A stretch of 64,000 nucleotides of DNA from a virus (Duplodnaviria > Caudoviricetes), in IMG/VR virus record IMGVR_UViG_3300028048_000060, positions 1-64,000 of that record. One strand, written 5' to 3'. Positions 13,493-53,571 of this stretch are shown here, in pieces (the stretch's first letter is position 1; every line of letters starts with the position of its first letter). The notes under the pieces are model-generated. The model did not search any database. It was not told the origin of the DNA and saw only the letters and a program-made list of their open reading frames with translations. Made by a program: the position numbers and the translations under genes.

Positions 13493-14017
13493 ATGATAAA
13501 GGTAACTATTTCAGACCCAGGATTATATGCTGTATATGTTGGTGAGATGATTGGGCAGTTCAGTGATGGTTACTGGGAAAATTCCAGAGCACACAGATAT
13601 GACTGGAAGTATTTCAGCTATGATAATGCTTTCCTCGTAGAAAAGGAAGAGATAACTAGGCTTCCAATTATCAGTTACAGCATCTTAAACTTCTTCAGGT
13701 TTGTTAAAAGAGAAAATCTAAAAGATATCATTGTAAGAGTTTTGATGCTTTACCGAAATGGAGATAAGGTCAAGGAAGCCTATAAAGATGGAGATGCTGG
13801 AGCCTTAATCAGTGCACTGTCATATGTGGATTATGCTGACAGGTTAGAAGAATGGGGTCATTTCGAGAGACAGTTAGAGGCTATCTCTAAGTATTTTGGA
13901 ACACTGGAGAATTTCAAGTCAATGAAACCAGTGATAAATAAAGAATCCATTAAAGAGTTTATGAAGATTGGAAAGGAACTTCACAACAGTTTCGAACATG
14001 TAAGGAGTATTTTTTGA
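13493..14017 (+). CDS. hypothetical protein
   Basis: GQFSDGYWENS motif; RBS GGAG. Confidence 0.65.
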   Translation: MIKVTISDPGLYAVYVGEMIGQFSDGYWENSRAHRYDWKYFSYDNAFLVEKEEITRLPIISYSILNFFRFVKRENLKDIIVRVLMLYRNGDKVKEAYKDGDAGALISALSYVDYADRLEEWGHFERQLEAISKYFGTLENFKSMKPVINKESIKEFMKIGKELHNSFEHVRSIF

Positions 14018-14487
14018 AATTTAAACTTATCTTAGAAAAAGATTATAAAGGGAAACTAGGACATCAACCTCCTAGTCCTGATGAGTATCCTAATGAAATA
14101 GCTAGAGGGGAATACATCTTCGACCCTTCGTTTGGCGGTCCTGATGACTTATTTCAGCATGCTTATGAGTACTATTTAAACACAGACTTAGTTTCAAAGG
14201 CAGACTGTAAGGTGTTTATGGATTTTTTAAAGAAAAATCAAAATAAACCAAATGCTGAGTTAACAATTTATAGAGGGCAACCTGACTCTGAGTTAGACTA
14301 TGGAATGTGGGTTACACCATTTAAGTCCTATGCTATGGCATATGCCTATGATGGTGCTTATGCAGGAGAAGGAAGTAAGGTATTCCAGTACAAAGTAAAA
14401 CTTCATGACCTATCCTGTGACTTTAATAGTCTTGCTGAATGGGGTTATTTTGGAAAACCTATAAAAGGAAAAGAAGTTAAATCTTAG
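14014..14487 (+). CDS. putative ADP-ribosyltransferase-fold protein, candidate internal head protein
   Basis: TTG start after AAGGAG; MKFKLILE leader; LTIYRG...WVT....YA..YA...V....V...D......EWGYF resembles ART-like domains. Confidence 0.5.
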   Translation: MKFKLILEKDYKGKLGHQPPSPDEYPNEIARGEYIFDPSFGGPDDLFQHAYEYYLNTDLVSKADCKVFMDFLKKNQNKPNAELTIYRGQPDSELDYGMWVTPFKSYAMAYAYDGAYAGEGSKVFQYKVKLHDLSCDFNSLAEWGYFGKPIKGKEVKS

Positions 14488-14520
14488 TTCTTATATAAAG
14501 ACATAGATATTTTAAAAGGA
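14477..14520. repeat. 44-bp direct repeat, copy 1
   Basis: TTAAATCTTAGTTCTTATATAAAGACATAGATATTTTAAAAGGA, identical to 14804-14847. Confidence 0.95.
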
Positions 14521-14803: not shown

Positions 14804-14847
14804 TTAAATCTTAGTTCTTATATAAAGACATAGATATTTTAAAAGGA
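14804..14847. repeat. 44-bp direct repeat, copy 2
   Basis: Identical to 14477-14520. Confidence 0.95.
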
Positions 14848-14885
14848 CTTTCATAGTCCTTTAATAACTTAGAAGGAGAACAAAA

Positions 14886-15050
14886 ATGAAAAATGGAAAT
14901 TTTGTCGCTAAATTCGACCACTTAGTTAACAAAGCAAAAACTTTCAAGGACAGAAAGAAAGCATTTAAGAAAGGCTATATGAAGCACAAGAACAAGTTTA
15001 AGAATTTTAAAGGGGACTATGTCCCCTTTTATGTTATTTTTCCTTCTTAG
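14886..15050 (+). CDS. small basic ArfA-like protein (absent from the ORF track)
   Basis: RBS AGAAGGAG; MKNGNFVAKFDHLVNKAKTFKDRKKAFKKGYMKHKNKFKNFKGDYVPFYVIFPS*; N.VAK...DRKK...KG..KHK pattern. Confidence 0.6.
   Translation: MKNGNFVAKFDHLVNKAKTFKDRKKAFKKGYMKHKNKFKNFKGDYVPFYVIFPS
15009..15040. terminator. intrinsic terminator inside the ArfA-like ORF, also usable by the convergent operon
   Basis: AAAGGGGAC-TAT-GTCCCCTTTT followed by ATGTTATTTTT. Confidence 0.8.
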
Positions 15051-15354
15051 ATGTAGAAGCAGATTTTTTTCTTGGCTTAGGTTCTGGCTTCTCGATCTTT
15101 TGTTCTAACTGAGTTATCTTTAAGTCTATACTCTTCAAAAAGTCTTCTACACACTTCTGTGAGACTTCAACTGATTCAGAATATACCCGAATATCCTTAG
15201 ATGTTTTGTTTATTTCTCTCTGCATTCGTCTACATTTAAAAAAGCATGTATAGATGGAAATAATAAACGTTAATACTGTTAATATTAAAGACACAATCAA
15301 AATACTACTATATTGGCACAGTGTTTCATTCACTGAGCATAAAAACTCTATCAT
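15034..15354 (-). CDS. single-TM membrane protein in lysis cluster (holin/antiholin candidate)
   Basis: Hydrophobic SSILIVSLILTVLTFIISIYTCFF, coiled coil, basic tail; late promoter at 15392-15399 (minus strand); next to the spanins. Confidence 0.45.
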   Translation of the reverse strand: MIEFLCSVNETLCQYSSILIVSLILTVLTFIISIYTCFFKCRRMQREINKTSKDIRVYSESVEVSQKCVEDFLKSIDLKITQLEQKIEKPEPKPRKKSASTSKKEK

Positions 15355-15680
15355 TTAAGGTCCTCCTTTAGAAACTGTTTTGAGTTCTTATTATTTATAT
15401 CATTTTTATAATAATATTTATACATTTCTATTATTTTATTCTGAATGATTATAAAATTCTTAATGTCGTCTGTATTTAGTGATAGATTTGAGTACTGTTC
15501 AGGACTTAGGCATATCATGGAGTTCTTTATTTCCCACTGGACTGGTCGCATCTTAACCTCAGGACTTTTTGGAAGCACTAAAGGTGGTCTCTCATTCTGA
15601 ATCTGTGACTGAGTAGAACATCCTAAACAAACAGGGACAAATAATATTAAAAATAATAATGTCTTTATATAAGAAAGCAT
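15351..15680 (-). CDS. outer-membrane spanin (o-spanin) lipoprotein
   Basis: Signal peptide with lipobox CLGC, Pro-rich segment, CLS...Y..L..N..DI..FI motif. Confidence 0.75.
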   Translation of the reverse strand: MLSYIKTLLFLILFVPVCLGCSTQSQIQNERPPLVLPKSPEVKMRPVQWEIKNSMICLSPEQYSNLSLNTDDIKNFIIIQNKIIEMYKYYYKNDINNKNSKQFLKEDLK

Positions 15681-15683
15681 ATT

Positions 15684-16097
15684 TTAATTCTCCATTTTAC
15701 ACTCTTTATGCTTAGACAGTTCTTCAAAACACTTAGATGTCTTTTCTTGGCCTTTGTTGATTATATTCTCAACCATCTTAGGGTGCTTCTTTACTAAGTC
15801 AGAGAAACTAAAATTCAACTTTTGGAGTTTCTTCTGAAGTTCCTGTTGTTGAAGTCTTAGACTATTTGAAGTTTCCTGAAGTTCTATGTTATATCTAATA
15901 ACATCATTATAATCTTCTTTAAGACTCTTTATGTAGACTTCTGTTTGTTTTATTTTTTCATTGAGTTCAGTGTTCTGTGTTTCTAAAGAGTCTATCTTAG
16001 AATTAAGAACCTTAATGTAAACAGAAGTTCCAAGAATTGTTAAAAGTACTGTTATTATAATAAAAGACTTAAAATTTAAATTTAATAATGAAAACAT
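15684..16097 (-). CDS. inner-membrane spanin (i-spanin)
   Basis: N-terminal TM, long coiled coil, KHPKMVENIINKG; directly upstream of the o-spanin. Confidence 0.75.
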   Translation of the reverse strand: MFSLLNLNFKSFIIITVLLTILGTSVYIKVLNSKIDSLETQNTELNEKIKQTEVYIKSLKEDYNDVIRYNIELQETSNSLRLQQQELQKKLQKLNFSFSDLVKKHPKMVENIINKGQEKTSKCFEELSKHKECKMEN

Positions 16098-52293: not shown

Positions 52294-52405
52294 AGTCCTA
52301 ATATAGGCCTAAAAATTATACAAGCAACAAATAATTTTTATATTCATAAGAGAAGACTTTGTCTTCTCTTCCAAAAATTTTTTGACTTTAACTCAAAAAA
52401 AATCC

Positions 52406-52434
52406 TTGATTTTTCTTTTAAAGTCCTTTATAAT
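52406..52434 (+). promoter_or_regulatory. early promoter of the rtcB-NAD cluster
   Basis: TTGATT-17-TATAAT-AATAAACATAAAG; palindrome-like site 52381-52397. Confidence 0.8.
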
Positions 52435-52461
52435 AATAAACATAAAGAAAGGAGCAAAGAT

Positions 52462-53556
52462 ATGATTTTAAAAGGAAAGTTCAATCAAGCATTTATTCAT
52501 GCTGAAACTATAGAACCTCAGGTTATCAACCAAATCAAGGAATTCTTAAACACTGATTTATCAGAAGGTTCTACTATCCACATTATGCCTGACACACACT
52601 CAGGGAAGGGTTGTGTAGTAGGTTTCACAATGACTATCTTAGATAAGTTATGCCCTAACTTAGTGGGTGTTGACGTGGGTTGTAACATGACTTGTATCAA
52701 GCTTCCAAAGGACACTAAGGTTCTTCCTGAAGTCTTCTTAGAAGCATGTAAGAAGATTCCAAATGGCGTTGGTTCAAATGCTGGAAGACCTCCTAAGTTT
52801 GTAGATGTAGATTCTATAGGTTTAGATAAACTGACTTTTGAACTTAATCATACTGAAACTGTGATTAACTCAATAGGTTCACTGGGTTCAGGAAACCATT
52901 TCATTGAACTTAATGAAGATAAGGAAACTGGAGACCATTATATTGTTGTTCATACAGGTTCTCGTAACTTAGGACAACAGGTTTGTGGTTATCATATGCG
53001 AGTAGCAAAGACTGACCACTCACGTGGAGACCTGTCTTATCTTACAGGACTCAACTTAGATAACTACTTACATGATATGAAGATATGTCAAAACTATGCG
53101 TTGTCTAACCACAAGGAGATTTACTCTAAGTTATTAGAACTTTTAGGTGTGAGACTCTGTAAGACAGAAGTTTTTACTACTATGCACAACTACATAGACT
53201 TCAATGACCATATTCTTCGTAAAGGTGCTATCTCTTGTCAAGAAGGGAAGAAAGTTTTAATTCCTTTTAACATGCGAGATGGTTCTGTGATTGGTGTAGG
53301 TAAGGGAAATCCTGAATGGAACTTCTCAGGTCCTCACGGTGCAGGTCGTATTCTGTCAAGAACTCAAGCAAAGCAGTTAATCACCTTAGAAGACTTTAAG
53401 GAGTCAATGAAGGGAATAACAGGAACTATTTGTCAAGAAACTATTGATGAAGCACCAATGGTTTATAAGAAAGCAGAAGAAATTGAACGCTTAATCTCAG
53501 AAACTGTAGAAGTGACTAATCACTTAAAGGTATTAGCTAACTTTAAGGGATTTTAG
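52462..53556 (+). CDS. rtcB: RtcB RNA 2',3'-cyclic-phosphate/5'-OH ligase
   Basis: MPDTHSG, GVDVGC, GSGNHFIE, HTGSR, HNY, RKGA, HGAGR, DEAPMVYK. Confidence 0.95.
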   Translation: MILKGKFNQAFIHAETIEPQVINQIKEFLNTDLSEGSTIHIMPDTHSGKGCVVGFTMTILDKLCPNLVGVDVGCNMTCIKLPKDTKVLPEVFLEACKKIPNGVGSNAGRPPKFVDVDSIGLDKLTFELNHTETVINSIGSLGSGNHFIELNEDKETGDHYIVVHTGSRNLGQQVCGYHMRVAKTDHSRGDLSYLTGLNLDNYLHDMKICQNYALSNHKEIYSKLLELLGVRLCKTEVFTTMHNYIDFNDHILRKGAISCQEGKKVLIPFNMRDGSVIGVGKGNPEWNFSGPHGAGRILSRTQAKQLITLEDFKESMKGITGTICQETIDEAPMVYKKAEEIERLISETVEVTNHLKVLANFKGF

Positions 53557-53571
53557 GAGAAGACAGGCGGT

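Follow-up and report, generated by a model that had tools for sequence, protein, structure and literature searches.

A DUF7230 gene of a T4-like phage that reads through its own terminator, and its possible part in ribosome rescue

A short open reading frame (ORF) in the genome of a distant T4-like myovirus, predicted to encode a DUF7230 mini-protein of ~40 conserved, very basic residues, passes through an intrinsic terminator hairpin before reaching its only in-frame stop codon. This ORF (14886..15050) is a real gene under purifying selection, and its stop-less design is probably functional. By analogy with the bacterial ribosome-rescue factors ArfA and BrfA, the activity of the protein may be ribosome rescue, a proposal to which slightly less than even confidence is attached. 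The combined reading, that a real DUF7230 gene is gated by tmRNA through a stop-less mRNA and that its product is likely to rescue ribosomes, is regarded as evenly balanced. The stretch of DNA analyzed, referred to here as the window, comprises the first 64 kb (64,000 nucleotides) of a 154.7-kb IMG/VR viral contig; its GC content is ~30–36% across 12–18 kb, and the tail tube of the source phage shares ~33% identity with its counterparts in cyanophages and Campylobacter phages. The features in and around the gene are listed in Table 1.

Table 1. Coordinates of the DUF7230 gene and adjacent features in the window.
Feature	Position	Strand	Remarks
Exact 44-bp direct repeat, copy 2	14804..14847	+	Just 5′ of the DUF7230 gene
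Weak 8-bp leader hairpin between repeat and RBS	14842..14862	+	−9.6 kcal/mol, z = −1.7
RBS GAAGGAGA	14872..14879	+	Conserved in relatives
DUF7230 ORF	14886..15050	+	54 codons; first in-frame stop TAG 15048–15050
Conserved DUF7230 core, codons 1–38	14886..14999	+	PF23876, phrog_1359, synonymous variants, family alignment
Variable linker KNF between core and hairpin	15000..15008	+	In-frame indels of 12 and 21 nt in relatives
Terminator stem-loop, codons 42–48 (KGDYVPF)	15009..15029	+	Terminator scan, folding, conservation in relatives
T-rich tract 3′ of the stem	15030..15041	+	Terminated, stop-less mRNA is expected to end here; predicted position
Last read-through codons and sole in-frame stop, TAG 15048–15050	15042..15050	+	Tail not conserved as protein
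Convergent 106-aa membrane-protein gene	15034..15354	−	Overlaps the read-through tail by 17 nt; same gene called in relatives

The DUF7230 ORF closes a block of rightward genes. It was initially proposed in a first-pass annotation of the window, and the translation given there agrees exactly with that obtained here; the strong ribosome-binding site (RBS) that it described is likewise present as GAAGGAGA, with GGAG at 14875–14878, 7 nt 5′ of the ATG. The hairpin, AAAGGGGAC-TAT-GTCCCCTTT, occupies 15009–15029 and contains 9 bp, including five G–C pairs, and a T-rich run, TTTTATGTTATTTTT, overlaps the last bases of the stem and reaches 15041. A pattern scan for terminator-like sites called a terminator at this hairpin on the plus strand, the T-tract being found on that side only. 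The predicted fold has a free energy of −13.7 kcal/mol (z = −3.3), which was equaled by none of 200 shuffled sequences (0/200), and the hairpin sequence is unique within the 64-kb window. Two further claims, that the terminator precedes the only in-frame stop and that the read-through tail is hydrophobic, were borne out: no stop occurs 5′ of the TAG at 15048–15050, which lies 19 nt past the stem, and the residues encoded 3′ of the hairpin are YVIFPS. A transcript ending 7–12 nt past the stem would therefore have no stop codon.

Both the protein and the pattern of nucleotide variation identify the ORF as a gene. Residues 1–39 match Pfam DUF7230 (PF23876; 41.3 bits, cut-off 27, E = 1.7e-10), the PHROG match is phrog_1359 (E = 5.5e-07), and nine metagenome proteins are 85–96% identical to the window protein. 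Across the six close relatives whose DNA was fetched, codons 1–38 encode an identical peptide and all variable codons (11/11) differ synonymously, whereas the expected synonymous share of possible single-base changes in the core is 16%. Past the hairpin, one-base indels shift the frame, yielding ORFs of 50–73 codons with unrelated, mostly hydrophobic ends. The hairpin itself is read through in all ten close relatives, and within the clade its stem is preserved despite 3 nt inserted into the loop and an A-to-G substitution that leaves a G·U pair; no stop 5′ of the hairpin has been gained in the clade, despite the in-frame 12- and 21-nt indels immediately upstream. In another viral copy (L055), whose protein is 56% identical, a hairpin is found at the same site, before the stop of that ORF, and its stem reads GGGGGT/ACCCCC as compared with GGGGAC/GTCCCC in the window, corresponding to two compensatory pair changes. 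The synonymous core, the kept hairpin and the frame-shifting tails indicate selection on the core peptide and the RNA hairpin, and not on the tail. A tblastn search of a phage collection with the 54-aa protein gave no match, probably owing to low-complexity filtering and the short length of the query.

The convergent 106-aa membrane-protein gene on the minus strand ends at 15034, 5 nt from the terminator stem, so that the hairpin also sits where two convergent blocks meet. This gene is the first of a leftward lysis and structural block that includes spanin-like, head-closure and tail-tube genes, and the hairpin could, in this genome, be an ordinary operon terminator overlapped by the ORF. According to the corresponding explanation, the product is a commonplace small, basic phage protein, such as one binding nucleic acids, that is made by read-through or coupled translation without any role for tmRNA; the hairpin is a plain terminator between convergent blocks, and the overlap results from genome compactness. 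The 5-nt spacing counts in favor of this explanation, which leaves unaccounted for the compensatory stem changes and the maintenance of an open frame up to the hairpin throughout a clade in which adjacent indels occur and tails frameshift freely; together with the family-wide evidence given below, these features render it unlikely. A leader-peptide (attenuation) reading, in which translation of the ORF controls read-through of the terminator into downstream genes, was also considered since a short ORF overlaps a terminator. It was rejected because the downstream genes are convergent (in the window and at the L005, L008 and L094 loci); the whole core is, moreover, conserved across phyla, unlike leader peptides, and the reading is rated as highly improbable.

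Several other features of this region were recorded. The probable lysis cassette (15034–16097, minus strand) comprises the 106-aa membrane protein and spanin candidates, namely a 109-aa lipoprotein-like Rz1/o-spanin candidate (phrog_812) and a 137-aa Rz-like i-spanin (phrog_739), and is followed by a head-closure-like gene and the tail-tube gene. On the plus strand, a 157-aa protein (14014–14487) matches only the C-terminal part of phrog_2579, annotated as “ParB C-terminal domain” (E = 2e-15), and its neighbors of 174, 180 and 89 aa match no family. An exact 44-bp direct repeat is located at 14477–14520 and 14804–14847, 327 bp apart, for which 0.01 copies are expected by chance. The two copies precede the 89-aa gene and the DUF7230 gene, contain a TATATAAAG motif, and may represent a repeated promoter/leader module; the first copy ends in the RBS of the 89-aa gene.

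A HMMER search of 1.8 billion representatives identified 25 relatives of the window protein, and the corresponding DNA was taken from genomes, metagenomes and viral contigs. All 26 aligned members match PF23876 and share the core N.VAK..NKA..F.DRKK..KKGY.KHK, with F-rich tails in many relatives; a full-text literature search for “DUF7230” found no paper. Terminators were scored as a hairpin with a dG of ≤−10 kcal/mol followed by a T-run, and ORFs in the same DNA that were 150 aa or longer served as controls. A terminator located wholly before the stop was found in 12 of 27 distinct free-standing members, which are not phylogenetically independent and whose hairpins differ in sequence, vs. 5 of 125 control ORFs. 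The first-pass annotation had regarded homologues that normally stop before the hairpin as evidence against its proposal; among the family members, the frame continues through the hairpin in the copies that possess one, and hairpins are missing from the copies that end in a plain stop. Judged from these comparisons, the terminator-before-stop layout is real and conserved by selection across the family. The 4% of control ORFs that also have a terminator before the stop can be cited for an ordinary protein overlapping an ordinary terminator, but unrelated hairpins recur in many bacterial contexts at ~10 times the control rate.

Five types of 3′ end were distinguished in the DUF7230 family. In the first, the hairpin and T-run lie wholly in frame, directly after the KHK core and 10–80 nt before the stop. 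This type was found in about a dozen divergent bacterial lineages, with mutually unrelated hairpin sequences (L005, L007, L008/L015, L013, L019, L021, L022, L094, L099/L106, L105, L108, and L109), as well as in the phage-like L095, the window clade and L055. In the second type, the stop codon falls within a long hairpin with a near-perfect stem (L012, L014, L017, L112, and L115). The folded 3′ regions of three of these copies, hosted by Oleiphilaceae and another gammaproteobacterium, range from −44 to −63 kcal/mol (L012:2501–2700; L014:2501–2700, at −63; and L017, minus strand), and structures of this type resemble the RNase III substrate of arfA. The third type is represented by a phage ORF (L075, 1486–1614, plus strand) that has no stop of its own and runs into a tRNA-Ala gene (1597–1672). 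The tRNA starts exactly after the ..KHR core and supplies the last five codons and the stop; cleavage by RNase P at the 5′ end of the tRNA would consequently leave a stop-less message.

The fourth type, found in several Succinivibrionaceae and other copies, has no hairpin and terminates in ..LPLAA, ..LPIAA, ..SPAA, ..IAA or similar. Ends in ..AA, which include LPLAA, LPIAA, SPAA, IAA and LWAA, and several of which belong to copies without an internal terminator, were counted by hand in ~12 of ~62 lineages, as compared with 3 of 96 control ORFs (L098, L100–L102, L108–L110, L119, L012, L014, L019, and L097; P0021, P0026, and P0031). They recall the last residues of the SsrA tag, and may constitute an encoded degron that takes the place of the stop-less design. 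A bona fide ArfA ORF from the order sample described below (L049) ends in ..SYSIAA, near-identical to the ..GYSIAA of the DUF7230 protein P0021; this likeness hints at convergence or at 3′ modules shared between ArfA and DUF7230.

The fifth type has a plain short tail with an ordinary stop and is found mostly in phage copies (L003, L056–L062, and L070–L077). The majority of phage copies, including that of T4, have a plain stop and no internal hairpin. The T4 copy (L092) is an unannotated 39-codon DUF7230 ORF on the minus strand of NC_000866 (~161580–161699), situated between arn.1 and arn and overlapping both annotations, and its plain TGA overlaps the start of arn. The stop-less design is thus not needed for the role of the protein in phages, and these plain stops count in favor of an ordinary phage protein. 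DUF7230 also occurs as the N-terminal module of phage proteins of 336–459 aa (L063:1501–2724, L066:1501–2877, and L076:1465–2472), one of which (L066) carries a weak HNH_3 match, and downstream of a cytidylyltransferase-like domain with which it shares an open frame (L069:628–1854). Such fusions to large phage proteins fit a general nucleic-acid-binding peptide, and likewise favor the ordinary-protein explanation.

The preferred reading, in which the message is stop-less by design, can be stated as a model. Transcripts of the rightward block would end at the intrinsic terminator, ~10 nt short of the TAG, and because no stop precedes this terminator, the last cistron would be a non-stop message. 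Ribosomes stalled at its 3′ end would be resolved by the host tmRNA-SmpB, and the ~50-residue product would be tagged for degradation; as a consequence of tagging and proteolysis, the protein would accumulate only if trans-translation were saturated or disabled, following the logic demonstrated experimentally for arfA and brfA. In infected cells, the untagged peptide would then bind to stalled or non-stop ribosomes and assist in releasing them, for instance if host RNase toxins or phage-induced mRNA decay generated truncated messages in bulk. The transcript end, tmRNA tagging, ribosome binding and rescue are steps that we infer by analogy with these genes. Since the stop lies only 19 nt past the stem, modest read-through or late termination would restore it.

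Circumstantial evidence for ribosome rescue was obtained from the distribution and genomic context of the family. Of 98 Succinivibrionaceae species genomes, none contained ArfA (0/98) and 36 contained DUF7230; of 251 genomes sampled from the order to which this family belongs, 84 contained ArfA and 6 DUF7230, with ArfA in none of those six (0/6). A single bacterial family contributes most of this phyletic pattern, and the genomes include many incomplete metagenome-assembled genomes. The RF-1-domain proteins of 10 of 12 DUF7230 genomes belong only to the RF1 and RF2 classes, with no ArfB-like third copy. The DUF7230 gene lies inside tRNA clusters at 3 of ~21 distinct phage loci. Rescue activity is thus suggested jointly by the design, by the occurrence of DUF7230 in the ArfA-less Succinivibrionaceae and by the links to phage tRNA clusters. 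The RtcB reported in the first-pass annotation is encoded at ~52,300–53,560 (plus strand; PF01139, E = 1e-45; 420-aa open frame), and from this match the phage is predicted to have RNA-repair capacity beside the DUF7230 gene. A complex prediction for Succinivibrio RF2 and the DUF7230 core of the same genome, with alignments for both, scored 0.00 and weighs neither way.

The same design evidence, including the rate of the layout and the compensatory pairs, also fits a protein that is gated via trans-translation and ClpXP but is not a release-type rescue factor; it might instead modulate or inhibit tmRNA-SmpB, silence ribosomes or hold them in hibernation, or serve as an RNA chaperone whose usefulness is confined to translation stress. 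Homology to ArfA or BrfA was not found, and the 54-aa product was predicted by AlphaFold2 to form only short helices (residues 6–14 and 23–39; mean pLDDT 69, pTM 0.26), values too weak for a fold search. However, the design is otherwise known only from RF2-dependent rescue factors (PMC6881298) and DUF7230 is common in a bacterial family without ArfA, and a non-release function is accordingly held to be an unlikely, though credible, alternative.

Returning to ribosome rescue as the preferred function, a broader reading is advanced tentatively, with less confidence than the individual proposals for this gene. DUF7230 would represent a new, non-homologous class of alternative rescue factors that senses the failure of trans-translation in bacteria and in this phage clade, and that occurs in a great number of T4-like phages, mostly in unregulated form, and sporadically in bacteria without ArfA. 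Stop-less messages would arise in at least three ways, namely through termination inside the frame, through a long hairpin that encloses the stop and through tRNA processing, and some copies would use an encoded ssrA-like ..AA end instead. To our knowledge, arfA and brfA are the only gene families that self-regulate by stop-less transcription, and both encode back-up ribosome-rescue factors; a third, unrelated family built in this way would suggest that another rescue system exists. Recurrent versions of the design involve different hairpins, tRNA processing and degron-like ends, and the family occurs in phages and in bacteria without ArfA. If the model is true, this phage would be the first virus found to gauge the tmRNA load of its host and to turn on a ribosome-rescue factor of its own in response. 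Should the proposed function hold, phages would interfere with, or get around, the quality control of host translation, a point of relevance to RNA-cutting defense systems.

The likeness to ArfA noted at first pass did not hold up as homology. Pfam ArfA (PF03889) was matched by none of the 26 DUF7230 members at E ≤ 10 (0/26), a profile of the 26-member family matched none of the PDB chain sequences at E ≤ 10, and a HMMER search of NCBIfam gave no match. The hhalign comparison of DUF7230 with an alignment of 28 ArfA proteins, which were drawn from 27 genome loci of one GTDB order only plus Escherichia coli, yielded P = 0.33 and a score of 8.1, with no signal in local, global or low-mact modes. 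Column-shuffled ArfA controls (n = 150) gave a mean score of 8.7, and 88 of the 150 scored at least as high as the real alignment. The by-eye match of F..R....KKG...Y.+K to ArfA residues 25–42 is therefore explained by composition. The KGKGS motif of ArfA is absent from the family consensus, which has KKGY instead. A very divergent but true member of the ArfA family, related by common ancestry, would have the similar length and charge, could be discerned in the by-eye match, and might account for a cluster with 12% ArfA members ranked seventh in the ESM Atlas (score 0.80), a weak lead only; given the profile searches, the shuffled controls and the missing motif, common ancestry is improbable. 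With no support from profiles or scores, DUF7230 is treated as a design analogue and not as a member of the ArfA, BrfA or ArfT families: as far as these sequence searches reach, it resembles ArfA and BrfA in design and composition and is not a detectable homologue.

The closest parallel in design is brfA. BrfA (YqkK) of Bacillus subtilis is an RF2-dependent alternative ribosome-rescue factor whose complex with the ribosome is in the PDB; the gene has 71 codons, of which ~62 are transcribed owing to an intrinsic terminator inside the coding region, and the product is SsrA-tagged and accumulates only in the absence of trans-translation (PMC6881298). [quoted passage not shown] The window gene shares with brfA a small basic product and an intrinsic terminator in the coding region upstream of the stop, which lies 9 codons past the terminator in brfA and 6 codons past the stem in the window gene; a non-stop terminated mRNA would also be shared, and SsrA-tagging of the window product is expected by analogy. 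It differs from brfA in that the PDB chain profile search revealed no sequence similarity and in that it is borne by a phage.

Like ArfA (YhdL, PF03889) of beta- and gammaproteobacteria, the window protein is a short lysine-rich peptide with a predicted stop-less message, and its hydrophobic tail is dispensable and lies beyond an RNA hairpin in the coding sequence. However, DUF7230 has KKGY.KHK where ArfA has KGKGSY.RK.KH, and the window gene would rely on an intrinsic terminator rather than on the RNase III cleavage used by arfA. ArfT of Francisella tularensis, a back-up to tmRNA, resembles the window protein in being basic and ~40 residues long; it is reportedly not controlled by mRNA truncation (PMC6299226) and belongs to the KGG-repeat family (PMC6514570), and, judging by the family description, its KKGGSTNKK tail has no counterpart in the window protein or the DUF7230 consensus, just as the DUF7230 motif is not seen in ArfT. 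The DUF7230/PHROG 1359 copies of T4-like phages are of the same family as the window gene and are likewise small genes situated among other small accessory genes, that of T4 being in the arn-asiA region; unlike T4 and most other phage copies, the window clade has the terminator-in-frame layout that is otherwise typical of bacterial copies.
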